From: Halalkalibacterium halodurans
GTDB taxonomy: Bacteria; Bacillota; Bacilli; Bacillales; Bacillaceae_D
DNA length: 28,166 nucleotides
Assembly: GCF_004376175.1 (NCBI RefSeq)
Contig: NZ_SNUY01000059.1
Location: 1 to 28,166 of the forward strand
Direction: 5' to 3'
Of this stretch, positions 6,525 to 27,347 are shown in pieces. Each line of letters begins with the position of its first letter. Position 1 is the stretch's first letter. The position numbers and the translations under genes were made by a program. Below the pieces are notes generated by a model. It had not been told where the DNA came from and made no database searches. It saw only the letters and a program-made list of their open reading frames with translations.

Positions 6525-8099
6525 ATGACTAAAAAAGTGAACTTAGCTGAATATAATAAAGAGTTAGAACAAAATTTAGAAGAGATTTTTAAAAATGATC
6601 AGTTTAAGCATTTACTTGATGTAATTGCAACAAGACATAATTACTCACTAGGTAATATGCTTAAGATTATACAGCAAAAACCAGACATTAAAATGATTCG
6701 TAGTTATGATAATTGGAAAAAGATAGGTAGACAAGTCAAGAAAGGCGAGACAGGATTAGAAATTTTAGTCCCTACTTTTAGAAATGAAGAAGTAACGAAG
6801 GTCGATGAAACAGGTTTTCCTTTATACGATGTAAAAGGGCAGCCAATTACAGAAAAAAAGAAAGTATTAAGAGGTTTTGTGACTGGAAAAGTATTTGATA
6901 TATCTCAAACGATAGGAAAAGAAGTGCCTAGTTTAAAACAGTTTATTCAAGAAGAAATGAAAAATGAGAATAACGTAAAGGAACTATATGATAGGTTCTT
7001 AGGGTATTTAAAAGAAAAAAGTAATGAGACAGATCTTCCGGTCAAAGAGGAAGAGCATACAGGAGAAAAGTATGGTGGATATTATGATAAGCGTAATCAT
7101 GAGATTATCATTAATACAGAAACCGCTAAAAGTCCAATGCAAAAATTTAGGGTTTTAATACATGAATACGCACATGCACAGTTACATCATATCGACAGCG
7201 AACTAAAAGATCTTGAGCGAGGACACAAGGAAGCTCAAGCAGATTCTTGCGCCTACATTGTGAACAAATATTTTGGTTTAGATACAGAAGAAAGTACAGT
7301 TGGATACATTGCTAGCTGGGCTAAAGACCTTAGAATAGCTAAAAAGGCAATATCTGAGGTACAAGAAGTAAGTATGACAATTATAGATGAGATCAACGAA
7401 GCTCAAATGGATAGAATTAATCAATTCTATAAAGAACATGATCCATCAAAAGTTAAAGAAGAACTAGAAAAGAAGGGAGTTAAGATTGAACCCGAAACAA
7501 AATTACAATTATTAGATATGAAGAACGGTTTTATTATTTCTGGACAAATAGAGAAAAGAGAAAGCGATGAGGTGGAGTATTTTCGTACAAATAAAAACCG
7601 AATTATTCCCCTTGATGAGTTGATTCAAGATTATGAAGTTATAAATAATCAATTGGAAATAGAAAAAATACTATCTGTTAAAGAAAATTTAAAGAACAGC
7701 AACTTTGAGATTATTGTAAATGGAAACAATAGTAGAAGTCTAAAACGAGACTTTAAAACGTTAAAAGAAGCTACCCAATATATCAATCGTATTGGAATAT
7801 CACAGTCATTGAATCAGGAAAGTATGAGGAAAAAAGAAAATAAAACGCTGAAACCTCAAGAAGAAAAGCTATTATCTAAACGCATTGGTAAGTATTTTGG
7901 CGACCATAATTTTTGTGCTGATTATGAAGGCAATATATCCATCGGATGGCATATTATGAAAAATCCTGATATTAAAACTAAACAAGAGTTCAAACGAGAT
8001 ATACAAAATTTAAAACAACATTTAGTAACCACAAAACGCCTATTAAATGCGATAAATCAAGCCGAAAAAAATTCGATGATGTGTGAGTTAGAAAGGTAA
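6525..8099 (+). CDS. ardC: ArdC-like protein: N-terminal ssDNA-binding (DUF1738-like) plus HExxH metalloprotease, with a long C-terminal extension
   Basis: NWKKIGRQVKKGETGLEILVP block typical of ArdC_N. LIHEYAHAQLHH zinc-protease motif with downstream HKEAQADS. 524 aa. Confidence 0.6.
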   Translation: MTKKVNLAEYNKELEQNLEEIFKNDQFKHLLDVIATRHNYSLGNMLKIIQQKPDIKMIRSYDNWKKIGRQVKKGETGLEILVPTFRNEEVTKVDETGFPLYDVKGQPITEKKKVLRGFVTGKVFDISQTIGKEVPSLKQFIQEEMKNENNVKELYDRFLGYLKEKSNETDLPVKEEEHTGEKYGGYYDKRNHEIIINTETAKSPMQKFRVLIHEYAHAQLHHIDSELKDLERGHKEAQADSCAYIVNKYFGLDTEESTVGYIASWAKDLRIAKKAISEVQEVSMTIIDEINEAQMDRINQFYKEHDPSKVKEELEKKGVKIEPETKLQLLDMKNGFIISGQIEKRESDEVEYFRTNKNRIIPLDELIQDYEVINNQLEIEKILSVKENLKNSNFEIIVNGNNSRSLKRDFKTLKEATQYINRIGISQSLNQESMRKKENKTLKPQEEKLLSKRIGKYFGDHNFCADYEGNISIGWHIMKNPDIKTKQEFKRDIQNLKQHLVTTKRLLNAINQAEKNSMMCELER

Positions 8100-8299: not shown

Positions 8300-8640
8300 A
8301 ATTTGCCACCTTTCCTATTTTTATTATATGTAGTAATTATACTAAAAGTGATATATATAGTAAATAATATAATGCGACTCAAAAAATACTACAATTACTA
8401 CTATTAATAATATCAAAACAAAAACCTGAAGAATCTTTTTCCAATTAGGACAACCTCTATAAAAACAAGGTATAATCAATAATTCAAAGTAATTGTACTC
8501 TTGTTACTAGTACCACTAATTGGAGTATTAATAGTGTTTTTACTAAAAATATCTATGCTGTTACTAATTATAATACTATTAATAAAAATAGTAAAAAACA
8601 AAAAAAGGGTTGATTTACTTTAGTGGACAAGTTAAGCTAG
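8300..8640. repeat. AT-rich array of TAGTA / TACTA words (direct and inverted), probable operator or promoter zone
   Basis: Examples: TAGTAATTATACTA, TACTACAATTACTACTAT, AGTAATTGTACT, TTACTAGTACC, TACTAATTATAATACTATTAATAAAAATAGTA. Similar arrays occur at 6455-6520, 9491-9530, 10660-10735, 11545-11600 and 27601-27640. Confidence 0.6.
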
Positions 8641-9420
8641 TAGTAGCTTAAATAAGTCACCAGATATACATAAAAAAAGCCACTTCTAGAGCGACCAAAC
8701 CATAGAAGTGACTCGTCATCCTGTGCGCCAACACAGGTTAATAGGTAGATTTATTATAACATTATATTGCTTGAAGGTAAATGGTAAATAAAACTATTTT
8801 GTTTATGTGGTTGCTTTTCCTTTACTTTTGAGCAGCTGTGTTATATGCGCTATCTTTTAACCTGTTTAGAAGATAGTGCTTTTTTATGTCTTGGTTAGCT
8901 TATTTGAGCTTGTGGAAGCCAAACCACAGAAGGAACGTTGGGAAACGTGCCGAAAAAATAGACAGGGTATGTCTTGACCATCGCAAACCAAGACTAGGAT
9001 ACTAGTAAATGCTCCCTGTTGCATTAAGTATCTGAATGGTGAAAGCTACCACTAAGTGCTGACGAAGGAGGGGTAGACGCCTTACGGGGCGTGTAGAACT
9101 ATCCGTAAGTAATCCATCATTTCTTTCCTCTGACCTACATAAAAGCTAGGATGAGGATTAAGTTCCCGAAAACGCCAAAGCGGTAAGGGAACAGGAATAG
9201 GATGAAACCACAAGGGCTACTTGCGTGTGTAGGATAGTTAGGACGGGAGTCCTGCGTTAACAGGGGTACACTGCGGATACCTCAGTAATCCGACGGATTA
9301 TGAGTTGATCGGTGTGTAGAACGTCTACTGCTTGCAAAGCTTTTTATTTTTTTAAATTGCTTTGCAGGTAGGCGTTCTGTGCCTTGCGTTGTCCTCGACA
9401 ACCTCTGGATTATGGCAAAA
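8640..9420 (+). ncRNA. candidate large structured non-coding element (RNA, Rep-less origin or ssDNA signal); identity unknown
   Basis: No ORF of 60 aa or more in any frame from 8300 to 9641. G+C by hand count is 31/60 in 9061-9120 versus 12/60 in 8341-8400. Many local hairpins including two GGGA (GNRA) tetraloops, and a 9-bp long-range helix (8888-8896 with 8986-8994). Strand inferred only from the internal + strand terminator. Confidence 0.4.
8847..8886 (+). terminator. rho-independent terminator inside the non-coding island
   Basis: GCGCTATCTT (8847-8856) pairs with AAGATAGTGC (8870-8879), 10 bp including one G-U, followed by T6 (8880-8885). Confidence 0.65.
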
Positions 9421-9869: not shown

Positions 9870-9888
9870 ATTATTGGAGGTTTTTTAT

Positions 9889-10467
9889 ATGTTTGTAATC
9901 CGCGGTAAAGACGGTCAAATTGTCACTAGTACAGCATGGGATGAAACGAATGGAGAAGAAATTCAGTACGAAACTTATGAGCAAGCTGAACAAGCATTGG
10001 ACGAATTGGAAAAAAGTTTGCCGAAGGATTTTTTCAAAATCGAAGCTACAAAATGCGAGCGTTGTGGTGGTCATGATGACCTTGCCATTATCCACGTCAA
10101 TGACGAAGCGAAGGCTTATTGTCAAAATTGCCGAGTAGAAATGTTTTCTAAAAAAAGAGCGGTCGGTCGTCCGTCTGGTGGAGTAACAAAAAAGGTATCG
10201 CTAACACTTCCAGAGAAAGAATGGGACTGGCTAGACGAACAGGCGGAAGGAAATCGGTCGCAATATCTTAGACGATTGGTTTGGGAAGCCCAATCAAGCG
10301 AAAATGAATGGAGCAATAACGCTTGTTTGGGTTATGCCATTCTTGGAGCAAAGAAATTAGGCATGAATGACGAGCAGATCGGCAAGCTAGTTCGTGCCAT
10401 TTATAGCGAATTTGATTGGAAAAGTGTCGAGGAAGCCAAAGACACTTACAATCAATCATCATTTTAA
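9889..10467 (+). CDS. zinc-ribbon plus ribbon-helix-helix DNA-binding protein (candidate plasmid regulator)
   Basis: GGAGG RBS with ATG at 9889. CERCGG...CQNC four-Cys ribbon, then KKVSLTLPEKEWDWLDEQAEGNRSQYLRRLV, a typical RHH strand-helix-helix. Terminator follows. Confidence 0.6.
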   Translation: MFVIRGKDGQIVTSTAWDETNGEEIQYETYEQAEQALDELEKSLPKDFFKIEATKCERCGGHDDLAIIHVNDEAKAYCQNCRVEMFSKKRAVGRPSGGVTKKVSLTLPEKEWDWLDEQAEGNRSQYLRRLVWEAQSSENEWSNNACLGYAILGAKKLGMNDEQIGKLVRAIYSEFDWKSVEEAKDTYNQSSF

Positions 10468-10517: not shown

Positions 10518-10840
10518 ATAAGGGGCAACCTCTCACAAAGGCGAGAGAGCCCCGTATGGCGTCTGTCAACGGTAAGAGGACTGTAGGGAGCATTAAGGAG
10601 TTGATAGACCCACTTCACCAAGACCCTCTTGGTGTGTCAAACAAGCCATTAGCAAGTAAAGTATTAAAGATATTAAGATTATTACTTTTAGTAATTTTAC
10701 TATTTTTAATACTTGTACTAATAACTTTTTGTTTGTATAATTATTGTTGGGAGGAAGTTTGCTATAGAGGGTTTAGAATATGGTACGTGAAATTTTAAAG
10801 TGACTCATTTTCAATCAGGAAAAAGAGAAGGGGGATTTAA

Positions 10841-11297: not shown

Positions 11298-11510
11298 ATG
11301 AAGGTAAAAGAAGTAAAAGTTTGCCAAGCGAAAGATAAAATTTTTAACAACAAGCACGCTTTGATAATTGCTGAAAATGGGATGAAGTTCGTTTATTGGG
11401 TTCCTAAAGCTTCTATTGAAGGAAATATAGAACAATATAAAGAGGTAGCAAAAGAAGATTTCAAGAACGAACAGCAGGTGATAATTGGAAAGATACAATA
11501 CAATTATTGA
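11298..11510 (+). CDS. hypothetical small protein
   Basis: AAAGAGG RBS then ATG at 11298 (internal Met of the 11277..11510 ORF). 70 aa. Confidence 0.45.
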   Translation: MKVKEVKVCQAKDKIFNNKHALIIAENGMKFVYWVPKASIEGNIEQYKEVAKEDFKNEQQVIIGKIQYNY

Positions 11511-12130
11511 TGAATAGTTCGTAAAAATGATTTTGTAGAATTTATATTACTACAAACACTAAATCAAGTATTTTTACTACTTTTAGATTAATTACTATCT
11601 CATTGTGCTATGGGTAATAGGGGAAATTAAAAAATCTACGTACTTTTTGTGTACTTTTTAAGGACTTATTGTGACCTTACATAGTGTTAAACTTATAAGT
11701 GAGAAAGTCTTAAGAGGTATAACAAGAAAATAAGATTTTATAAAAAAGGTGGGGAATATATCCTCACCTTTTGCTTGATTAAAAAAAGAAGGGGAAAGAT
11801 AAAGGTTATGGAAGCTATGTATCTATTTTTTATGTTTGCTATTGCTTTGTTATCAGTTATCTTTTTAGACCTAGAACCAGCAACTGAACGACAAAGCGCA
11901 GTTTCGGTAAAAAATGGAAAAACTAATGTCAAGTTAATTTCAAAAGTTTATCGGGTAAGTCCGAGATAAGTCCAAAATCGGGCATAATCGATATAAATGT
12001 AAAGGCATTTTGTGGATTAAAATAAATCATTTGTAAATGTTTGATCAAATTGCATGAACGGGGCAGTAAAGTGCACTATTTTCTTTTGGTAAAGCTCTTC
12101 ACTTGCAGTCGGAAGGCCATAATCCCCTAA

Positions 12131-13488: not shown

Positions 13489-13977
13489 TTACATCTGAAC
13501 ACACAGGCGGTTTATGATCTTATCGGCATCTTTGTTGATATCTTCAACGAATTTTCTGACGTTTATTTTGATTTCCTGTACCTTTGAATAAAAGACATTA
13601 TTGATAATGGTTCCCTTCATCCACTTCCAAAGTCCTTCTATAAGGTTCAAATCTGGACTATACGGCGGAAGGAATACCAGTTCAAGTCGACTTTGGTTTT
13701 CTTCTAGGAAAGGCTGAATAAGCTTGGCATGATGGATCCTTGCGTTATCAAGGACCATGACGATTTTTCCTGAAGGATACTTACTAAGGACTTTTTTCAG
13801 GAATTCAAGGAAGACTTCCGCGTCATAGTTTTCTGCTTCGACTACAAAGACTTCCCCTGTCTCGTAATTCAATGTTCCGAGAAGCTTGGCACCTTGATGC
13901 TTCCCGTAGGTAGGGATTAACCTTTGTTTTCCTCTCAGAAACCATGAACACTGAAGGGCCTGGTAATCCCTAATCAT
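13489..13977 (-). CDS. IS630-family transposase, C-terminal DDE part (orfB frame)
   Basis: VMVLDNARIHHAK and LPPYSPDLNLIEGLWKWMK motifs. The same frame is open upstream through LLNEEIDHILFEDES, which carries the first catalytic Asp. Confidence 0.8.
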   Translation of the reverse strand: MIRDYQALQCSWFLRGKQRLIPTYGKHQGAKLLGTLNYETGEVFVVEAENYDAEVFLEFLKKVLSKYPSGKIVMVLDNARIHHAKLIQPFLEENQSRLELVFLPPYSPDLNLIEGLWKWMKGTIINNVFYSKVQEIKINVRKFVEDINKDADKIINRLCVQM

Positions 13978-14002
13978 GGACTCGTCTTCAAACAGGATAT
14001 GG

Positions 14003-14536
14003 TCAATTTCTTCGTTTAAAAGTTTTTTTTAGATCTGGAAATGTCTCGTTTTTGAACGTTTCCTGTTTTGCCTTATCTGCCTTTTTAAGTGTATAGTTCG
14101 GTCTTGTATGGCTTAGGCCAAGGTCTTCAAGAAGGAGGGAAACGCCACGAAGCGTATAGGTTTGTCCCCATTCACGTTGGATGAAGTCTGATATGATGGC
14201 AAGCGTCCAGTTATAATGGTTTTCATATCCTACATCATGTGGTGTTTTATACGCTACCACCTGAACGAGTTCATGTTCCTGGCTCTCAGTTAACTTTCTA
14301 GGCGCACCCGTTGGTAGGCCTCTTTCAAGCCCAGCCAATCCGCCTTTCTTGTAGGCTTTAATATAAGAGGAAATCGTCTTAGTAGAACGAAGAACAATCT
14401 CAGAAATATCCTTATGCTTGAAACCTTTTAGATAGAGGTGGACAACCTGGTAACGTTCGAACATGCGCCTGTCATTGGTATCCTTCATGGCTTCCATGAC
14501 ACAAAGATTTTCCTGTTGAGTAGTCAAGGTACTCAT
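14003..14536 (-). CDS. IS630-family transposase, N-terminal HTH part (orfA frame)
   Basis: Winged-helix/HTH-like N-terminus. It ends 5 codons after an A8 run (T8 on the plus strand, 14023-14030), where a one-nucleotide frame change fuses it to orfB. Confidence 0.8.
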   Translation of the reverse strand: MSTLTTQQENLCVMEAMKDTNDRRMFERYQVVHLYLKGFKHKDISEIVLRSTKTISSYIKAYKKGGLAGLERGLPTGAPRKLTESQEHELVQVVAYKTPHDVGYENHYNWTLAIISDFIQREWGQTYTLRGVSLLLEDLGLSHTRPNYTLKKADKAKQETFKNETFPDLKKTFKRRN

Positions 14537-15568: not shown

Positions 15569-15940
15569 TTAACAGCAAGCTGAGTTATCACCAAAGAGTT
15601 CAGAATTTTTGATTTCACCAGCCAGACGTTTTATATAAAAATCAGGATTCTTTTTGAACTCTGTCATACAATGAGGACATCTGCAAAAATTAAATTTGAT
15701 ATCCTCATGCTGATATTCAATTGTGAACTCCGCTGGTTTTTCAGCTAAACAAGCGGGACAAACAACCCAGTCGGCTATTTCCGCAAGATATTTATCCGGA
15801 TCGGTAATAAAAATATCTACACATCCCTGGCAACAAAATTGATATTCTTCATCTTTATATTTGTATACGGCTGCCTTATCTTTTTCAATCCCTAATCGTA
15901 CTAGGGAACACCCACAGGCAGGACAGATTGAAGTTTTCAT
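15569..15940 (-). CDS. tandem TRASH/YHS-type Cys-rich metal-binding protein with C-terminal Cys-Cys
   Basis: Two copies of the CPxC...(Y/F)xFCxxxC...F..(D/N)P(D)xY pattern: ICPACG...YQFCCQGCVDIFITDPDKYL and VCPACL...FNFCRCPHCMTEFKKNPDFYI. Ends in ...NSACC. AGGAGG RBS. Confidence 0.6.
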   Translation of the reverse strand: MKTSICPACGCSLVRLGIEKDKAAVYKYKDEEYQFCCQGCVDIFITDPDKYLAEIADWVVCPACLAEKPAEFTIEYQHEDIKFNFCRCPHCMTEFKKNPDFYIKRLAGEIKNSELFGDNSACC

Positions 15941-18169: not shown

Positions 18170-18511
18170 ATGGTGAAAGAACAACCTGTTTTGCAGTTGG
18201 AGGATTTACAGCACGAGCTTATAGCGAAGTTTTTTCACGGACTATCGAATCCGGCGAGATTTAAAATCGCTGTGTCCTTGCTCGAATCCGAAAAAAATGT
18301 TAGTCAATTAGTTCATGAGTTAGGAATGAAACAATCTCAAATATCAAACCAGCTTGCTTGTTTGAAATGGTGTGGTTATGTGTCGACACGCCAAGAAGGC
18401 AAATTTATTTATTATCGGATTACAGACGAAAGAATTCGAAACATAATCGAACTGGCCCGCCAGGTCGTCGCCGACAATGCTGAACATATCAATTGTTGTA
18501 CGAGAATCTAA
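18170..18511 (+). CDS. ArsR/SmtB-family metalloregulator (candidate Hg-responsive repressor)
   Basis: The wHTH core (LSNPARFKIAVSLL...NVSQLVHELGMKQSQISNQLACLKWCGYV) is ArsR-like. Cys residues at CLKWC, and a C-terminal vicinal pair in INCCTRI. GGAGGTG RBS. Confidence 0.75.
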   Translation: MVKEQPVLQLEDLQHELIAKFFHGLSNPARFKIAVSLLESEKNVSQLVHELGMKQSQISNQLACLKWCGYVSTRQEGKFIYYRITDERIRNIIELARQVVADNAEHINCCTRI

Positions 18512-18556
18512 GGATTAAGAATTCTTTACTAGAGTTTGATGGAGGGAGGAATTTTC

Positions 18557-18817
18557 TTGAAGGAAAAAATGAAAGGCTGGGGATGGGGAGCTTTAGCATT
18601 CCTAACTTGTCCGTGCCATCTGATTTTAATCATCCCTTTATTGGCAGGTACTGCATTGGGAGCCTATTTAACTACTTATAAAACTGCGGCCTTTATTATT
18701 TTAGGGGCATTATTTGCCTTGTCCCTTTACAGGGTCTTAAGTAAAATGTGGCCCGAAAAAACGGAAGATCAAACCATGGATTGCTGTCTTCCTGATAAGA
18801 AGGAAGTGAAGTCATGA
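18557..18817 (+). CDS. merE: MerE-family small mercury transporter
   Basis: WGALAFLTCPCHLILIIPLLAGTALGAYL closely parallels the Tn21 MerE core (WGALAVLTCPCHLPILAAVLAGTTAGAFL, recalled). GGAGGGAGG then TTG at 18557; an alternative ATG lies at 18569. The C-terminal tail contains DCC. Confidence 0.7.
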   Translation: MKEKMKGWGWGALAFLTCPCHLILIIPLLAGTALGAYLTTYKTAAFIILGALFALSLYRVLSKMWPEKTEDQTMDCCLPDKKEVKS

Positions 18818-19335
18818 AACGCGCTGCTCTTCTTGTTCTTTTACTTGCTGTAATCGGTATTGGTTATTTTGCGGTTACCAAATTGGGGGGATCAGCAGGT
18901 GCGGGCGTTGTGAAAACATCTGAGCAGGCAAGTAAAACAGCTGAAAATCCGACAGTTTCCAATTTGAGTTTTACAGATATCGACGAAAAGGTTGTAAAGG
19001 TCGACCCCAACAAAAAGACCATTCTTCATTTTATGATATCTACCGGGTGTCCATCTTGTGCAGTTATGGCAGGGAACCTAACCAAGTTTGCGGACAATCC
19101 TAATATCGATCTGGTTTCCATTGCCATGGATCCAGTGAATGACACAAAAGAGACGATTCAAGAATTTAGGGAAAACACGCAGGCAAAATGGCCTTTTACC
19201 ATCGATAAGGATCAATCGCTGATACAAAAATTTAACGTTACCTCCATTGATACGGTTATGATTATTTATCAGAATAAGCTTATTTTTAGTGGAGTGTACC
19301 CTTCAATTTCAGAATTGGAGAATGAGCTAAAATGA
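18814..19335 (+). CDS. membrane-anchored thioredoxin-fold (TlpA/ResA-like) protein with CPSC motif
   Basis: N-terminal hydrophobic anchor, FMISTGCPSCAVMAG CxxC motif, thioredoxin-like length. Start overlaps the merE stop (ATGA). Confidence 0.65.
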   Translation: MKRAALLVLLLAVIGIGYFAVTKLGGSAGAGVVKTSEQASKTAENPTVSNLSFTDIDEKVVKVDPNKKTILHFMISTGCPSCAVMAGNLTKFADNPNIDLVSIAMDPVNDTKETIQEFRENTQAKWPFTIDKDQSLIQKFNVTSIDTVMIIYQNKLIFSGVYPSISELENELK

Positions 19336-19991
19336 CGGCAACTGCACTTCTTATCCTTGGAACCGGTATGATGGCGGCATTCAATCCCTGTGGCATTGCG
19401 ATGCTGCCTTCGTACATCGTTTACTTATTAGGCGGACAGAAAAGGAAAGCGTTCGATGGCCTTTGGGCTGGCCTGCTTATGACAACCGGCTTTTTGGTAG
19501 TCTTTCTGATTGCCGGATTAGTTTCCGTTATTTTTGCCGAATTATTAGGGAAAGCTATGCCATGGATTGCGTTTTTCGTTGCGGTTGGCTTTGCTGTTGC
19601 AGGTATCTTCATGATGTCTGGCAAAAATGTATTTTCGTTTCATATCGGTGGTAATTGGGAAATGAAAAAAGGCGCGAAAATATCCCTATTCCTTTATGGA
19701 ATCGCATACGCTCTCGGCTCCCTTGGTTGTACTTTACCATTATTCTCTGTTTTGGTTTTATCCTCATTTGGGGCAAGTGGTTTTCTGAGCGGGATGTTTA
19801 ACTTCCTGTTGTACGCACTTGGGATGGGTTTCGTTGTTACGTTAATTTCACTGGCTTCAACGATTTCCCAACAACTTGTAATGGACTTTGTCCGTTCAAG
19901 CGCCCGGTGGATGGGAAAATTAAGCGGCGCCATTACATTGGCGACAGGGATTTATCTGATTTTTTATTGGTTTCCGAAACTCCCTTTGTAA
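19332..19991 (+). CDS. CcdA/DsbD-family integral membrane thiol-transfer protein (candidate Hg(II) importer)
   Basis: About six TM segments, with Cys in TM1 (FNPCGIAMLP) and TM4 (LGSLGCTLPLF) as in CcdA/DsbD_2. Start overlaps the upstream stop (ATGA). Confidence 0.6.
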   Translation: MTATALLILGTGMMAAFNPCGIAMLPSYIVYLLGGQKRKAFDGLWAGLLMTTGFLVVFLIAGLVSVIFAELLGKAMPWIAFFVAVGFAVAGIFMMSGKNVFSFHIGGNWEMKKGAKISLFLYGIAYALGSLGCTLPLFSVLVLSSFGASGFLSGMFNFLLYALGMGFVVTLISLASTISQQLVMDFVRSSARWMGKLSGAITLATGIYLIFYWFPKLPL

Positions 19992-20026: not shown

Positions 20027-21679
20027 ATGTCTGAAAAAGAGATAAACGTACGAATTCCTACACAGGGAATGACTTGTGCTGGTTGTGAAGATCACGTGAT
20101 CAACGCATTGAACAGTATTGGCGCAAAGAATGTAACGGCAAGTTTTCGCAAAGGAGAAGCAACTTTCCAGGTTGAAGAGAAAAGCGACATTGAAAAAGCA
20201 AAGAAAGCAATCGCGGATACCGGGTACATGCCTGGGGAGGCTGAAATCATTTCCAGTGAAAGAAAACCTGAACTGAGCCAGGAAGGCGACTATGATTTAC
20301 TTATTATTGGATCCGGCGGAGCTGCCTTTTCGGCAGCGATTGAAGCAGTCGGACAAGGTGCTAAAGTAGCCATGGTCGAGCGTGGCACCATAGGCGGAAC
20401 TTGTGTCAATATTGGGTGTGTCCCTTCCAAAACACTGCTTCGTGCCGGGGAAATCAATCATTTGGCTCGCATGAATCCTTTTCTCGGACTAGACATTTCA
20501 GCGGGACCGGTAGATTTAGCCACATTAGTTAACAAAAAGAATGAACTTGTTGACAATATGCGTCAGGAGAAATACGTCAATTTAATCGATGATTACGGTT
20601 TTGACCTTATCCAAGGGGAAGCGAAATTCCTTGATGAGAACACGGTAGAGGTTGATGGGCGGAAGATTACAGCGAAAAGCTTTTTCATTTCAACCGGTGC
20701 TTCTCCACAGGTGCCAGACATTGAAGGTTTAAAAGAAGTCGATTTTCTAACGAGTACTACAGCTCTTGAACTGAAAGAACTTCCGAAACGCCTAGCCGTC
20801 ATTGGTTCTGGATATATTGCGATGGAACTAGGACAGCTATTCCATAATTTGGGATCGGAAGTGACCTTAATCCAGCGAAGTCCACGCATTTTAAAAACAT
20901 ATGACCCTGAAATTTCTGAGGCTGTAACAGAAGCCTTAACGGAACAAGGGATAAGTTTAATTACGGGTGCGACGTATGAGAGAGTAGAAAAAGACGGGGA
21001 TGTCAAACGTATTCACATTGTGGTGAATGGTGAGAAACAGGTAATTGAAGCAGAACAGCTTCTTGTTGCCACTGGCCGAAAGCCAAATACAGCAGCACTT
21101 AACCTTGATGCTGCCGGTGTTAAGGTCGGATCTCGGGAAGAAGTGATCATTGATGAATATCTCCGGACAAGCAATCCGCGCATTTTTGCCGCAGGAGATG
21201 TAACAATGGGACCTCAATTTGTGTATGTAGCAGCCTATGAAGGCGGGGTTGCGGCTAGAAATGCCTTGGCTGTTACGGAACAAAAAATTGATCTTCGTTT
21301 CGTTCCAGGAGTCACGTTTACGAATCCTTCGATTGCTACTGTGGGGCTCACTGAAGAACAAGCGAAAGCAGAAGGATATGAAGTAAAGACGTCCGTTTTA
21401 CCTTTAGATGCTGTACCGAGAGCCCTTGTAAACCGGGAAACAACTGGTGTTTTCAAACTGATCGCTGACGCGAAAACATTAAAAGTGCTTGGCGTTCATA
21501 TTGTGGCCGAAAATGCCGGGGATGTTATTTATGCAGGAACATTGGCAGTTAAATTTGGTTTAACGGTTCAAGATTTACGCGAAAGCCTTGCGCCTTATTT
21601 GACGATGGCGGAAGGATTAAAGTTAGCAGCTCTTACTTTTGATAAGGATGTTTCCAAATTATCCTGTTGTGCAGGGTAA
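20027..21679 (+). CDS. merA: mercuric reductase MerA with one N-terminal HMA (NmerA) domain
   Basis: [13 protein letters not shown] motif, [13 protein letters not shown] site, redox-active [12 protein letters not shown]-terminal LSCCAG Cys pair. 550 aa. Confidence 0.95.
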
Positions 21680-21690
21680 GGTGAGATAAT

Positions 21691-21957
21691 GTAACCGCCT
21701 GATAACTTTGAACACTTTTTGCTAAATTGAAGTGAACACTTTACTGGAAGTTGTGGGGACATGTTGTCACTTTACATGGAGCCCCTGCGCGCAAGATCAC
21801 GAGCCATGAAGCCAGATGTACCAAAGAATCTGGCTCAGACGAAGTAGGCTATCATGTCCGCCTCTCCAAATAAAGCGCACGTCTCTACTGGAAAATAGTG
21901 TTCAGTCTTATTCAGCATTTTTAGGTAAGAAAGTGTTCATTTCTACTTGGCGGTTAC
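21691..21957. mobile_element. 267-bp MITE-like element with 9-bp perfect terminal inverted repeats and a 7-bp target-site duplication
   Basis: GTAACCGCC (21691-21699) and GGCGGTTAC (21949-21957). AGATAAT directly flanks both ends (21684-21690 and 21958-21964). Subterminal TGAACACT(T/A)T motifs occur twice at each end. No ORF. Confidence 0.75.
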
Positions 21958-21983
21958 AGATAATTATGGTGAGGTGAGAATGA

Positions 21984-22277
21984 ATGGGGATCTTTGATTT
22001 TTTTAAAAAGAATTCAATCGAAAATTCAATCATGAATCCAGGAATTGGAGAAAAGATGGTTGTTTTTAAAGATCTAGGCATGAGTTGAGGAAGTTGTAAA
22101 GCTTCGGTCGAAGCTGAGTTGAAAAAAGTATTGGGTGTTTCTCAATTTAATGTTAATGTGAAAAATCAATCAGCAACGGTCATTTTTGACCCATCGAAAA
22201 CAGATTTGAATTCCTTAAGAGAAGCTATTCACCGGGCTGGTTACACACCAAAGTATGAAATTGTCAAAGATGGATAA
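21984..22277 (+). pseudogene. HMA-domain (MerP/CopZ-like) gene with in-frame TGA replacing the first Cys of GMxCxxC: pseudogene or selenocysteine recoding
   Basis: GAGGTGA RBS with ATG at 21984. Reads ...KMVVFKDLGMS-TGA-GSCKASVEAELKKVLGVSQFNVNVKNQSATVIFDPSKTDLNSLREAIHRAGYTPKYEIVKDG. TGA at 22086-22088. Full HMA fold signature on both sides of the stop. Confidence 0.6.
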
Positions 22278-22303
22278 ATTGAAAAGTATATGTTTTTTTA
22301 ATG

Positions 22304-22347
22304 AACACATCCACTCTTCTTACAAGAGGCGTGATGTGTTTTATTCT
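22304..22347 (+). terminator. rho-independent terminator after the HMA gene
   Basis: AACACATC (22304-22311) pairs with GATGTGTT (22333-22340), with an inner CTCTT/AAGAG helix, followed by a T-rich tract. Confidence 0.65.
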
Positions 22348-22662
22348 TTCCGTTTTCCCCCACTTTTTTAGTTACTTTTTTATTCACTCATTAAACAGTG
22401 AGCAAAGAAACTGGATAATTTAATCAAATTCGAGCTTAATGCTGATGGACCTTAAAAGAAAGATGTACTTCGTTTGAAATCTCCGAAAAAAGTCACTGTT
22501 GTATCCCAAAAACAAAAAATGAAGCAAAGCTACTTTATTTTCGGCTTTTATCCTCTCCTGTAAATTGTGTTGCGTTAGAGTATCATTTCCATACTTATCA
22601 TACCACCATCAATGGGTCATGTTATGAAAAAAAATCCAGTCTATGACTTTTTACACGTATCT

Positions 22663-22794: not shown

Positions 22795-23106
22795 GTGGAA
22801 CATGTTAAAGGAAATGCGATGGAATTATGTTTTGAGGCAGCAAGATTTTGTGAAAAAACGTACGCTGAGTCATTGGATACGCAAAACACGAAACTGATTC
22901 GATATTTAAGGGATTGTGCTGATTTGTGTTATACTTGCGGCAAATTTTGTGCAAGAGACAGTGAGTTTATGGGTGCTCTCGCCAAAGCTTGTGCGGATGT
23001 TTGTATCAAATGCGCTGATCTTTGTGAAAGTGTTGGTACTGATATTGCAAAACAATGTGCTGAAGCGTGTCGTCGTTGTGCGGAGGCTTGCCGACAAGCT
23101 TCATAA
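22795..23106 (+). CDS. DUF326 / Csp3-like four-helix-bundle Cys-rich metal-storage protein
   Basis: 14 Cys in repeated CxxxC/CxxC spacing on predicted helices (CADLCYTCGKFC, CADVCIKCADLC, CAEACRRCAEAC), as in YhjQ/Csp3-type proteins. AAGGAG RBS. The start could instead be the ATG at 22819. Confidence 0.65.
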   Translation: MEHVKGNAMELCFEAARFCEKTYAESLDTQNTKLIRYLRDCADLCYTCGKFCARDSEFMGALAKACADVCIKCADLCESVGTDIAKQCAEACRRCAEACRQAS

Positions 23107-23170: not shown

Positions 23171-23368
23171 TTATTTAGCTCGACCTACTGATGGTTGAAC
23201 ACCTGTTCCACCACAGCATCCACACATCCTGCCGCAGTGGCAAGTGGGACAACATCCACTTCTCTGACAATGGTGGCAACCGGATCCACCGCAACAACAA
23301 CACTTTCCTGTACCACCACAGTAACGACACCCACCTGTACCACCGCAGCAATGACACATATGTTGCAT
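23171..23368 (-). CDS. 65-aa Cys/Gly-rich metallothionein-like peptide
   Basis: GGAGGTGA RBS 7 nt before the ATG at 23368. 18 Cys and 17 Gly of 65 residues, with repeats of CGGTG(G/K)C and runs CC/CCCC. This frame was chosen over three other open frames because it alone has an RBS plus ATG. Confidence 0.55.
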   Translation of the reverse strand: MQHMCHCCGGTGGCRYCGGTGKCCCCGGSGCHHCQRSGCCPTCHCGRMCGCCGGTGVQPSVGRAK

Positions 23369-23610: not shown

Positions 23611-23654
23611 TCATTATTTTAGTGTTTTTGATACAATTATATAGGAAGGAGAGG

Positions 23655-24209
23655 ATGTATGTGAAATTTGGTTATATGCGAGTTTCCACAATTGACCAAA
23701 ATTTAGATCGCCAAAAGAAACAGCTTGAAGATTTCGGATGTGAACAAATCTTTTTTGAAAAACTGACTGGTACTAAACGGGATCGCCCGGAGTTAAACCG
23801 CATGTTAGAGTTTCTTCGAAAAGAAGATACGGTTGTCGTAACGGATTTAACTCGTTTATCTCGTTCCACGAAAGATTTGATTGAGATTACAGAGCTAATT
23901 TCACAAAAGGGAGCGCATTTAAAAAGTTTAAAGGAGTCCTGGCTTGATACAACAACAGCACATGGAAAAATGTTGTTTACCATTTTTGCTGGAATTGCAC
24001 AGTTTGAGCGAGATCTTACCTCTGAACGAACAAAGGAAGGAATTTTAGCTGCAAGGAAGCGAGGAAAACTTCCTGGAAGACCAAAAGCTGACGAGGAAAA
24101 AATTAAGTATGCTTTATATCTAATGGAACAAGGGATGAGCCGGACTGATGCTGCTGAAAAGGCTGGTATCTCTCGTATGACTCTGTACCGTAAGATACAA
24201 AAAAAATAA
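23655..24209 (+). CDS. tnpR: serine recombinase / Tn3-family resolvase
   Basis: FGYMRVSTIDQNLDRQ catalytic-Ser motif, and the C-terminal HTH GMSRTDAAEKAGISRMTLYRKI. GGAAGGAGAGG RBS then ATG at 23655. Confidence 0.9.
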   Translation: MYVKFGYMRVSTIDQNLDRQKKQLEDFGCEQIFFEKLTGTKRDRPELNRMLEFLRKEDTVVVTDLTRLSRSTKDLIEITELISQKGAHLKSLKESWLDTTTAHGKMLFTIFAGIAQFERDLTSERTKEGILAARKRGKLPGRPKADEEKIKYALYLMEQGMSRTDAAEKAGISRMTLYRKIQKK

Positions 24210-24296
24210 TGCAACTAACTAGTAACCAATGGACCAAGAATTACTTGTTAATGCTTACAGCCTACTTAAATCGTGATTTCAATTGAGAGGTACAAA

Positions 24297-27248
24297 ATGA
24301 AAAAACAATGGGAATTAGATGAACTAATCGGTCATTTTACATTAATCGAACCTGAAAAAAAGTTGATTGAAAGTAAGTATGTTAATTCGCAACTGGGCTT
24401 TGCTGTAATAATGAAATTTTTTCAGCATGAAGCCAGATTTCCAGCCAAGTCTAGTGATATTCCAAAAGTAATAATCGATTTTATTGCAAAACAGCTTAAA
24501 GTACATCCGGCGATGTTTGATCTATATTCTTGGAGTTCTCGTACCTTGACGAATCATCGAAATGAAATCCGGAAATTATATGGTTTTCGTGAAGTTACAA
24601 TTCAAGATGAGAAAGAGATAACAACCTGGTTACAGGGGAAGGTGTTGGACTATGCTCATGAGTTTGAACCTTTAAAGGAGACTGTCTACTCTGAATTTAG
24701 ACGTAAAAAAATAGAGCCACTTACTGATGACCAGATTGAAAGAGTGGTTAAATCAGCAGTTTGGAATCAGGAACAGCAATTCTACAAAGAAACTTACCAA
24801 AAATTATCTCCTATTACCCTATCCCGTATGGATGCTCTTATGGAGTCATGGGTTGACATGGAAAACGATGAAACAGGCGAAGAGCAAGAAGATAAAAACA
24901 AAATTACTTTTCGCAAGATTACACTAGGTCCAGGACGAGTTAGCAAAGATACATTGCTGTTAGAAATTAATAAGTGGAAAACCTTAAATATGTTGGAACT
25001 CCCTGATAACCTATTTAGCTTAATTCCACCGAAAGTAATAAAAAAATATCGATTAAGAGCTATATCGGAAGAGAAAAGAGAGCTACGTAGGCATCAACCA
25101 GCCATACGCTATACTTTGCTAGCAGCACTTTTTTGGTCAAGAATCAAGGAGATAACGGATAGTTTAATCGAAATTTTAATCACTCTTATCCATAAGATTG
25201 ACGGCCGTGCGGAGAAAAAGGTTAAGAAAGACCTTATTCTAGAAGTAAAAAAAGTACATGGCAAAAATGACATTCTAATCTCATTATTAGAGGCTGCGCT
25301 CGAAAATCCAAATGGAATTGTAAAAGATATTTTATTTCCTTTAGTTGATATGGACACCCTAAAGAATATTATTAAAGAATTGAAATATAAGAACTCGGTT
25401 TATCAAGAAAAAGTATATTGGAAAATCCGAAGCTCCTATAGTAGTTCCTATCGGACAGCAGTAACAGAGTTACTGAAAACGTTAGATTTTCGTTCCAACA
25501 ATCAGAATCATCAGCCTCTTATTAAAGCCATTGAGTTGATTCGTAAATACTCGGGTACTACTCAAATTAATTATGCTCACGATGACGATGTTCCTACTGG
25601 AAGAGACATAATTCCTGCTAAATGGCGAGAACATGTCATAGAAAAAGATTCTAAAGGCAATGAGAAAATTAACCGAATGAATTATGAGATTTGTGTTCTT
25701 CATGCTCTTCGAGATAAGTTAAAGTGCCGAGAAATTTGGGTGGTCGTTGCAGATCGTTACCGAAATCCAGATGATCATCTCCCACCTGACTTTGTTAAAA
25801 ATCGAGAAGAACACTATGAAGCTCTTAAGTTACCAATTAATGTGGATGAAAAGATTACGGAGTTACAACAGGAAATGCATGATAAGCTATCGATGCTAGA
25901 TCAAGGAATACCTAGAAATAAAAAAGTATCCATTTCTGAATATAAAGGTGGATGGATTTCTCTAGCAAAGGACGATATACAGCCTGAACCCAAACGGTTA
26001 GCTTATCTCAAACAAGAGATTGCAAATCGATGGTCGATGACTAATCTTATTGATATTTTAAAAGAAACAGATTTACGGGTAGGGTTTTCGGATCTCTTTC
26101 AAACATTGGCTACTCATGAACGGTTAGATCGAAAAACCATTCAAAAACGCTTGCTGCTTTGTCTTTTCGGATTAGGAACAAACACAGGTCTAAAAAGGGT
26201 TGCTGCAGGGAATACAGATGTTACCTATAAAGATTTGTTATATATTAAGCGAAAATACATTTACAAAGATAACTTAAAGGCAGCCAATGAACATGTGGTC
26301 AATGCCATTTTAGCAGATCGTTTAGAAGAGGTCTGGGGGAAAGGAACAACCTCTTGTGCATCTGATTCCACAAGAGTTGTAGCATATGATCAAAATTTAA
26401 GAACTCAATGGTTCCCACGTTATCGAGGCCCTGGCGTCTCTGTTTACTGGCATGTAGAGGAAAAATCGATGTGTATACACTCACAAGTAAATACACCGAA
26501 TTCTTCTGAAGTAGCTGCTATGCTTCATGGATTATTAAATCACAACACCAATAAAGAAATTGAAAAAAACTTTGTTGATACACATGGACAAAGTGAAGTA
26601 GGTTTTGCATTTTGTCACTTGCTCGGTTTCAAATTAATGCCACGTCTCAAAAACATCAGTTCACAGAAACTGTATAAACCTAATACTGGAGTCAGTTTTC
26701 CTCATTTACAGCCTGTTCTCGCACAAAAAACAATTGATTGGGAATTGATTCGTCAACAGTTTGATGAAATGGTGAAATATGCAACTGCTTTACGATTAAG
26801 CGTAGCAGACACAGAATCTATCTTAAAGCAATTTTCGAAAAACACCTCTCATCCTACCTATAAAGCATTACAAGAATTAGGAAAAGCGTTGAGAACTATC
26901 TTTTTATGTGAATATCTGCATTTTGAAGAAATACGTAGAGAAATCCATGCTGGTTTAAATGTAGTGGAAAACTGGCATTCAGCCAGTGATTTCGTTTTTT
27001 ATGGAAAAGGTGGAGAGATCCAAAAGAATCAACCAGAAGAACAAGAAATTGCTATCCTTAGTCTCCACTTACTGCAAAATTGTTTAGTCTACATTAATAC
27101 TCTTAAAATTCAACATGTACTGAAAGAAAAAGAATGGATCAATCAGATGACAGCAGAAGACTATCGCGCTCTCACTCCTCTAATTTACAATCATATCAAT
27201 CCATATGGAGAATTTCGAATGGATCTAGATAAAAGACTTGCATTATAA
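24297..27248 (+). CDS. tnpA: Tn3-family DDE transposase
   Basis: About 983 aa. N-terminal DUF4158-like region ([12 protein letters not shown]...[16 protein letters not shown]). C-terminal Tn3-type catalytic region (ASDSTRV...; [27 protein letters not shown]; INPYGEF). GAGAGG RBS then ATG at 24297. Confidence 0.9.
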
Positions 27249-27309
27249 TAAACACTTTAAAACGAATGAACCGATTCATATAGAGTTGGTTCATTTACCA
27301 TTTTTTTCC

Positions 27310-27347
27310 GAAATTGCACTTCGTCGTTCAGTTGCTGGTTCTACCCC
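27310..27347 (-). repeat. candidate terminal IR of the tnpA-bearing transposon (outer end at 27347)
   Basis: The reverse complement begins GGGGTAGAACCAGCA..., resembling the recalled Tn4430-type IR start GGGGTACCGCCAGCA. It lies about 100 bp past the tnpA stop. No mate was found in the window, so this is tentative. Confidence 0.35.

Follow-up and report, generated by a model that had tools for sequence, protein, structure and literature searches.

Does an in-frame UGA codon at the metal site of a small HMA-domain gene mark a broken gene or a selenoprotein? The question is raised by 28,166 nucleotides of Halalkalibacterium halodurans DNA (contig NZ_SNUY01000059.1), analyzed here over their whole length and called the window below, in which a gene of a mercury resistance region has TGA in place of the first metal-binding cysteine codon. 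We use HMA-U as a working name for this gene, after its HMA domain and in-frame UGA, and label its relatives L (loci) and P (proteins). The initial annotation of the locus proposed that the UGA encodes selenocysteine (Sec; U in motifs), assisted by a hairpin that resembles a bacterial selenocysteine insertion sequence (SECIS). Our comparisons support that interpretation at the level of the gene family: very probably, HMA-U belongs to a family of UxxC selenoproteins with a bacterial SECIS, a prediction drawn from aligned genes and their DNA.

A UGA codon at the first metal ligand of an HMA domain

The gene and the signals around it are:

HMA-U gene, 21984..22277, + strand: 97 sense codons, including UGA at codon 35, and a TAA stop (from translation and Pfam HMA).
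Shine-Dalgarno-like sequence GAGGTGAGA, 21971..21979, + strand: 4 nt upstream of the ATG (read from the sequence).
N-terminal extension, 22055 being its last nucleotide (21984..22055), + strand: 24 amino acids (MGIFDFFKK...PGIGEK), conserved as protein in the family and without a hydrophobic signal peptide.
UGA codon 35, 22086..22088, + strand: first ligand of a U-G-S-C metal site, predicted to be read as selenocysteine.
Spacer, 22089..22099, + strand: 11 nt between UGA and hairpin, invariant in length and variable in sequence in the 12 distinct sequences described below.
Predicted SECIS hairpin, 22100..22115, + strand: 6-bp stem AGCUUC (22100-22105)/GAAGCU (22110-22115) with loop GGUC (22106-22109).
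Intrinsic-terminator-like hairpin with U-rich tail, 22303..22351 (hairpin 22303-22341), + strand: -16.6 kcal/mol, z -3.9.

The frame at 21984-22277 reads MGIFDFFKKNSIENSIMNPGIGEKMVVFKDLGMS-TGA-GSCKASVEAELKK...KYEIVKDG-TAA, and the initial annotation had located and described both the gene and its TGA correctly. The good ribosome-binding site it mentioned is the Shine-Dalgarno-like sequence listed above; L005, a relative with 83% identity, has a matching GAGGTGA ahead of its ATG and an equivalent of the terminator-like sequence after the gene.

The frame had also been said to encode a textbook HMA domain with TGA at its first Cys, and both Pfam and alignments to solved domains bear this out. 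Translated with C for U, the frame scores 62.6 bits against Pfam HMA (PF00403; E 4.7e-17), for which the cut-off is 24.8. Its matches in the PDB are 2rml/1p6t (CopA N-terminal domains, E ~5e-21), 1k0v (CopZ), and 1afi (MerP). When the protein is aligned to solved HMA domains (CopA N-terminal domains, CopZ, MerP, and ATP7A/B), the TGA column coincides with the first Cys of GMTCxxC, and every solved domain aligned has Cys in that column. A model of the Cys-containing homologue P0006 has the beta-alpha-beta-beta-alpha-beta fold (pLDDT 85.6; strands E24-29, E52-58, E63-68, and E91-96, helices H36-47 and H75-84) and places residue 35 in the loop between beta-1 and alpha-1; its N-terminal extension is predicted to be disordered over the first 14 residues (pLDDT <50).

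The extension itself is under constraint as protein: in alignment A1, residues M1, G2, F4, F7, K9, P19, G22, and E23 are invariant while their codons differ. We saw no hydrophobic segment in the translated extension of the window protein, and its scores fall below the cut-offs of the MerP models (49.9 versus 92.55 for TIGR02052; 30.1 versus 110 for NF033553) and of the B. subtilis-type CopZ model (57.4 versus 91 for NF033795), so that "MerP-like," as the gene had been called, is imprecise. No curated NCBIfam model reaches its cut-off for the window protein. We regard the HMA-U product as, with high probability, an HMA-fold metallochaperone of ~10.5 kDa that is predicted to be cytoplasmic, is related to CopZ and the MerA N-terminal domain, and would carry a U-x-x-C site.

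Conservation of the UGA codon and its hairpin

The hairpin reported at 22100-22115 is present as described: it starts 11 nt after the UGA, has six base pairs, and closes on a GGTC loop. The same nucleotides encode (K)ASVEA, the start of helix alpha-1. How unusual such an element is depends on the definition used. A loose SECIS definition is satisfied by 291 of the 994 TGA trinucleotides in the window (29%). A strict one (perfect stem of at least 6 bp, 4-nt loop starting G[G/U], 16 to 37 nt from the TGA) is satisfied by three of the 994, two of which share the 22100-22115 hairpin; neither strand of the window has another perfect hairpin of at least 6 bp that closes on GGTC. The one other strict SECIS-like geometry, at 8611-8670 (+), has a perfect 8-bp stem closed by a GTAG loop, 26 nt after a TGA; as it falls between ORFs 6525-8099 and 9874-10467, it is probably a terminator. 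Since the folding energy of a single sequence proved uninformative here, the case is decided by comparison with relatives.

Relatives were sought with a Cys version of the window protein among 5.8 billion proteins. This returned four matches only, all of them short ORFs whose starts coincide with the TGA position or directly follow it; among them is the window's own 52-residue fragment, recorded at NCBI for Cytobacillus horneckiae (PKG26554.1) and H. halodurans (TES50334.1). A profile search added 12 proteins, of which nine are fragments of 57 to 62 residues and three are full length; fragment entries include Symbiobacterium terraclitae and a Symbiobacteriaceae metagenome-assembled genome. The family is thus represented in databases by truncated "HMA domain" entries of 49 to 62 amino acids, plus one in which TGA was read as Trp: the full-length P0005 (L014, 1051-1404) has GMH-W-AGC, its DNA codon is TGA, and its source, JGI, translated that TGA as Trp. 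Sec forms outnumber Cys forms, at 14 of the 16 relatives found by profile search. Three other searches gave little: tblastn against a plasmid collection found only HMA domains below 60% identity, a genome-contig scan with the C-terminal 62 residues found only three distant Cys-type HMA matches, and an exact look-up of protein P0001 returned no record.

We then read the DNA of every relative that could be fetched. In all 13 further TGA-form loci, the TGA occupies the same codon; counting the window, they make 12 distinct sequences (the loci behind them being L005-L011, L014-L018, L023, and L024), and TGA with the hairpin is also found in L019-L021, for a total of 16 loci outside the window. The 12 sequences come from loci of 36 to 76% G+C, with amino acid identity to the window protein as low as 43%. 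Across the relatives, the 34 residues before the UGA and the 62 after it are conserved in one frame, and full-length members share a constant architecture of 97 to 99 codons: an extension with the consensus MG(I/F)FD(F/R)FK(K/R)...PGxGE(K/Q), a core of (M/L)VxF..(L/I)GM(H/S)-U-x-x-C, and the remaining HMA domain. The second ligand is Cys (TGT or TGC) in all members examined. TGA also serves as the true terminator of the same gene in several relatives, which argues that it has not been reassigned genome-wide.

Codon usage after the UGA points to a constraint on the RNA. We tabulated the codons of all columns with an invariant amino acid in 10 nonredundant TGA forms. Codons +5 to +8 after the TGA are single in all ten (Ala GCT, Ser TCG, Val GTC, and Glu GAA), and GCT and GAA are kept even in loci of 69 to 75% G+C; the remaining degenerate invariant columns, 15 of 15, use two to four codons. 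The only stem pair that varies among these ten sequences is the outermost, which is A-U in the window and L005, G-C in most, and G-U in L008 and L014. L024 keeps the consensus hairpin. L023 has GGCCTT-GGTC-AAGGCC versus GGCTTC-GGTC-GAAGCC, so that one U-A pair has become C-G and one C-G pair has become U-A, each fully compensated; the peptide ASVEA thereby turns into ALVKA, while TGA, 11-nt spacer, and GGUC loop stay as they are. The stem is 100% paired across the 12 distinct sequences, and three of its six pairs show double changes, which 1 of 500 shuffles attains; when the 3' partners were slid by one to three columns as a control, pairing was 15 to 51% and double changes were zero. These 16 nt therefore encode both a helix-forming peptide and an RNA signal, L023 being a case in which two amino acids are altered yet the stem is retained.

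The initial annotation had suggested asking whether UGA, Cys codon, and hairpin co-vary, and they do. Every close homologue with readable DNA has both TGA and hairpin, the reverse of the refuting case it had named, in which close homologues would have TGT or TGC and the same nucleotides downstream. A Cys codon (TGC) was found in just two relatives, L012 and L013, which are 44% and 40% identical to the window protein and share its entire architecture, N-terminal extension included; they have no GGUC hairpin at the corresponding position, where they encode QRSIEGQL and QGAIDRKL rather than ASVEA. To judge by these alignments, purifying selection acts on the RNA at both the UGA and the hairpin, and the two co-vary. 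L005, which keeps TGA and the exact hairpin despite changes in neighboring codons, extends the evidence for selection to the low-GC lineage.

The predicted element agrees in its geometry with the bacterial SECIS model given in the legend to Fig. 2 of PMC13188914, which requires an apical loop of 3 to 9 nt on an upper stem of 4 to 16 bp, a G within the first two loop positions that is usually followed by G or U, 16 to 37 nt between UGA and apical loop, and a minimum free energy of -7.5 kcal/mol or lower. All 12 sequences have a 4-nt loop and a 6-bp stem; the loop is invariably GGUC, and the UGA-to-loop distance is invariably 17 nt (11-nt spacer plus 6-nt arm). A lower helix proposed by RNAalifold (22091-22098/22134-22140) seemed supported in 10 sequences; with two more, both of which have breaks, it is 83% paired and confounded by GC drift, and we do not claim it.

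A mercury transposon on a plasmid-like element

The window appears to be a Bacillaceae plasmid-like element, with a MobL relaxase, a topoisomerase, an ArdC-like protein, and a Bacillus-plasmid RNA. The last, the sole real Rfam match (RF01691; 52.6 bits, E 2.8e-9), lies at 10562-10617, just after a DUF2239 gene, and marks the window as Bacillaceae plasmid. Within it lies a Tn3-family transposon of ~15.5 kb. Besides resolvase and transposase genes, it encloses the entire mer region, HMA-U, a Csp-like gene, an IS630-like element, a gene for a YHS-domain protein, two merB genes, and merR. The features that define it and lead up to HMA-U are:

Left terminal inverted repeat of the Tn3-family transposon, 11872..11917, no strand: 46 nt, 91% identical to the inverted 27298-27343.
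Right terminal inverted repeat of the Tn3-family transposon, 27298..27343, no strand: just after the transposase (24273-27248); resolvase at 23622-24209.
Upstream operon genes, 18170..19991, + strand: ArsR-type regulator, MerE-like transporter, redoxin/ResA-like protein (CPSC), and CcdA-like protein (Pfam, NCBIfam).
merA, mercury(II) reductase, 20027..21679, + strand: 641.7 bits against a cut-off of 454 for TIGR02053, with its own N-terminal GMTCAGC HMA domain.
MITE-like insertion (miniature inverted-repeat transposable element), 21690..21958, no strand: 269 bp with 29-nt imperfect inverted ends (TGTAACCGCC.../...GGCGGTTACA) and GATAA on both flanks.

HMA-U had been placed downstream of merA, and so it is, though not immediately: the MITE-like element sits between the two genes. 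It is absent in L005, where the gap from merA to the gene is 29 nt. By megablast, the mer operon recurs with the same arrangement and 84% identity in a plasmid of Paenibacillus urinalis (L001), where the last upstream operon gene is annotated CcdA; the match stops at merA. Stretches of 4.3 to 9.7 kb from the window recur in three other assemblies or sequencing runs at 99.98 to 99.99% identity, which indicates recent spread, and the HMA-U gene is unchanged in all three. Elsewhere, family members follow genes for a CsoR-type repressor, an MFS transporter, and a P1B-type ATPase (L006, L015, and L016), or lie among mer genes or beside P1B-type ATPase genes (L007 and L017). The common setting of the family is soft-metal resistance, not mercury alone.

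Several other genes of the transposon deserve mention. At 18536-19991, MerE-like, ResA/TlpA-like redoxin (CPSC), and CcdA-like genes stand in place of merT-merP, an arrangement that suggests an extracytoplasmic thiol-reducing branch. Downstream of HMA-U, 22795-23106 (+) encodes a DUF326/Csp-like four-helix-bundle copper-binding protein; adjoining it, a 65-residue ORF (23171-23368, -) made up mostly of Cys and Gly (MQHMCHCCGGTGGCRYCGGTGKCCCCGG...) could encode a metallothionein-like partner, or, given overlapping ORFs in other frames, may not be real. The IS630-like transposase (13489-14536, -), inside the Tn3-family element, is split into an HTH ORF (14003-14536) and a DDE_3 ORF (13489-13977), which reflects either programmed frameshifting or a disrupted copy. 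The YHS-domain protein (15569-15940, -) has an uninterrupted ORF; YHS-domain proteins are a listed selenoprotein family (NF041384, GxU).

Decoding of the UGA, rival explanations, and known systems

SelB contacts the loop G and U of the E. coli fdhF element, and the affinity of Hg(II) for selenolates far exceeds that for thiolates. If the established bacterial pathway operates on HMA-U, SelB with GTP and Sec-tRNA(Sec) would bind the hairpin 11 nt downstream of UGA-35 as the ribosome arrives there and deliver Sec instead of termination. The resulting selenolate-thiolate pair would bind a soft metal ion: most likely Hg(II) in the window protein, because its gene follows merA, and more likely Cu(I) or a similar ion in relatives encoded beside CsoR and P1B-ATPase genes. 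The ion would then be handed to a partner enzyme or pump, i.e., MerA or the ATPase. In a host without selABCD, only a 34-residue peptide would result.

Other apparent selenoprotein genes, likewise with in-frame UGA, accompany some family members. On the same contig as its HMA-U gene, L006 has a GrdB-like gene with SPG-TGA-YMC (~11332-11334, -), a classical UxxC position, followed by its own hairpin with a G-first loop (GUU); L016 has a redoxin/AhpC-like gene (419-1009, -) with GPG-TGA-PPC. Gene callers have split both. Symbiobacterium thermophilum is listed with 10 selenoproteins, and some HMA-U relatives come from Symbiobacterium. As for the Bacillaceae, C. horneckiae is the other species in which the window's fragment is recorded, and we take Bacillus oceanisediminis 2691 to be now placed in Cytobacillus. 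Strain 2691 is positive for SelD, SelA, and SelB, with 8 selenoproteins in the supplement; several Bacillaceae are positive in Table S1 of the same study, the Sec trait being patchy in this family (Peng et al. 2016). Sec machinery itself can be plasmid-borne: tblastn of E. coli SelA against PLSDB found selA on 153 plasmids (e.g., NZ_CP101638.1 and NZ_CP081136.1), including ones of ~21.7 and 21.9 kb in Terrisporobacter and megaplasmids of Enterococcus and Ligilactobacillus, with none from Bacillaceae among 40 sampled entries or the ten commonest genera. Our literature search returned nothing useful on selenocysteine in H. halodurans or on selenium in C. horneckiae. That the present host actually produces the selenoprotein has, in our estimate, an even chance.

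A number of observations weigh against reading the window's UGA as Sec. The bulged U used by E. coli SelB is absent from the hairpin. Over 40 nt the hairpin folds at -7.4 kcal/mol (z -1.1), ordinary for its composition and just short of the -7.5 kcal/mol limit of the model; a 71-nt fold gives -16.5 kcal/mol, and the other TGA-form relatives that we folded range from -8.2 to -16.9 kcal/mol, within the limit. An Rfam scan of the whole window, at E values up to 10, matched no SECIS family. L005 has a TAA at codon 8 of its extension (L005 171-173; TTT TTT TAA versus TTT TTT AAA), which may be an assembly error, a sign of a decaying copy, or tolerable through an internal start at Met25, which has its own GGTGA/GGAG upstream. 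The 28-kb window contains no selA, selB, selC, or selD, and ARAGORN found no tRNA in it, hence no selC. Finally, Table S1 of Peng et al. (2016) includes only one strain of these two species, C. horneckiae and H. halodurans, namely Bacillus halodurans C-125, and scores SelD, SelA, and SelB as absent from it.

This last result is one reason to consider that the family is real but that the window's gene is silent cargo, in a host without selABCD, where translation ends at codon 35 and the gene is kept only because the transposon spread recently. Such an account agrees with the Sec interpretation at the family level, and we give it a probability somewhat short of even. The near-identity of the recurring stretches, the presence of the same fragment in two genera, and the MITE-like element inserted between merA and HMA-U are in keeping with it. 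Against it, the gene is intact in four identical copies, with ribosome-binding site, TGA, hairpin, and terminator unchanged; the conservation of L005 described above speaks for selection; and strain 2691 shows that relatives of the other named host possess the machinery. A different proposal accepts read-through but not Sec: the hairpin might stimulate near-cognate reading of the UGA, for instance by Trp-tRNA, which can read UGA at low efficiency in Bacillus subtilis, or UGA might be reassigned. Downstream structures can enhance read-through, and the Trp in P0005 might seem to point the same way, but that Trp comes only from the translation table chosen. The metal site would be destroyed if its first ligand, Cys in the nearest relatives, were Trp or Gly; TGA ends the same gene in several members; SelB-binding elements have this loop sequence and this spacing; and in L006 and L016, nearby genes carry TGA at classical UxxC positions. 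We consider SelB-independent recoding improbable.

Still less probable, in our view, is that the UGA is a real stop after which a second ORF restarts, giving a 34-amino-acid peptide and a 62-amino-acid HMA fragment whose coupling the hairpin would tune. Gene callers do annotate a 62-amino-acid ORF, and a start codon directly follows in some members (TGA-ATG-GGT in L006, L008, and L015-L018; TGA-GTG in L007). In the window, L005, L009-L011, L014, L023, and L024, however, the codon after TGA is GGA, GCA, GCG, GAG, ACG, or CGG, none of them a start; moreover, the split would sever strand beta-1 and the first metal ligand from a single domain, which full-length Cys relatives make as one chain. The initial annotation had itself offered a mundane alternative, one TGY-to-TGA nonsense mutation plus a hairpin that arose by chance from the KASVEA codons; HMA-U would then be an ordinary CopZ-like gene that was inactivated. 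The ordinary folding energy and the ease with which loose SECIS definitions are satisfied would fit a pseudogene. Conservation and covariation exclude it for practical purposes, and we assign it next to no probability: TGA is kept in 12 distinct sequences over a wide range of G+C, four hairpin codons show no synonymous variation, compensatory changes occur in the stem, the hairpin is missing from Cys forms, no close Cys version was found among the 5.8 billion proteins, and amino acid identities of 43 to 60% to the window rule out copies of one recent pseudogene.

With the Sec reading, the annotation can be corrected for a gene that several bacterial lineages carry in mercury and copper resistance loci. 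A predicted selenolate at the primary ligand of a metallochaperone also offers a way to ask whether selenium aids mercury or copper capture and hand-over. It was less expected that such a gene would have spread recently on a Tn3-family mercury transposon in aerobic Bacillaceae, that its SECIS would be nearly invariant across very different genomes, and that Sec forms would predominate over Cys forms. Selenoprotein genes, it seems, can move with resistance cargo, also into species where the decoding machinery is not universal. A bolder and rather doubtful extension is that the transposon carries a portable selenoprotein: its minimal and almost invariant hairpin, with the geometry of E. coli fdhF and a range from 36 to 76% G+C, could be readable by very different SelB proteins, so that any Sec-competent recipient would gain a selenolate Hg(II) chaperone. 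Were this true, mercury resistance would become selenium dependent, and the transposon would provide a natural test of Sec versus Cys in metal trafficking and, as far as we know, the first case of a selenoprotein gene spreading as transposon cargo.

HMA-type selenoproteins are already known; the present family is real and mis-annotated, not a new principle. The closest parallel for the RNA element is the E. coli fdhF SECIS, whose GGUC loop and 11-nt spacing the initial annotation had given correctly: of 5426 complete E. coli genomes, 5419 have the string TGA-CACGGCCCATC-GGTTGCA-GGTC-TGCACC in this gene. Both elements lie in coding sequence right after the UGA, with an 11-nt spacer and a GGUC apical loop. 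They differ in that the window stem is a perfect 6-bp helix with no bulged U and no convincing lower helix, and in host lineage, Enterobacteria for fdhF versus Bacillota here.

At the protein level, B. subtilis CopZ, the CopA N-terminal HMA domains, and the NmerA domain of MerA share the fold and the position of the metal loop with the window protein, which differs in having a predicted Sec for the first Cys and a 24-residue N-terminal extension. Among known or predicted selenoproteins, the cation-transporting P-type ATPase with UxxC (ABB15669.1), listed in the prokaryotic selenoproteome review PMC13188914, likewise handles heavy metals and has Sec first in its motif, and relatives of the window gene directly adjoin P1B-type ATPase genes; its motif, however, belongs to a large pump, whereas HMA-U is free-standing, with 97 residues and a conserved extension. 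In the table of this 2026 review we found no family matching a free-standing UxxC HMA protein. A MerP selenoprotein predicted from the GOS metagenome (PMC2398784) is of HMA type, mercury related, and predicted to contain Sec; it was reported from only two marine sequences, with no motif given, and MerP is secreted whereas the window protein has no signal peptide. MerT-like proteins, too, are among the HMA-type or mercury-related selenoproteins predicted earlier. NF041115 (UxxU_metal_bind) is a small HMA-like metal-binding selenoprotein family to which the window protein aligns over positions 6-68 of 74, but it is not a member, scoring 47.2 bits against a cut-off of 95, and it has UxxC with one Sec rather than UxxU with two. 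NF045683, a curated family of MerT/CopZ fusion-like selenoproteins, shares a CopZ-like module and a mercury-transport context; it is a membrane fusion of 235 positions, of which the window protein matches the C-terminal module only (32 bits against a cut-off of 375).

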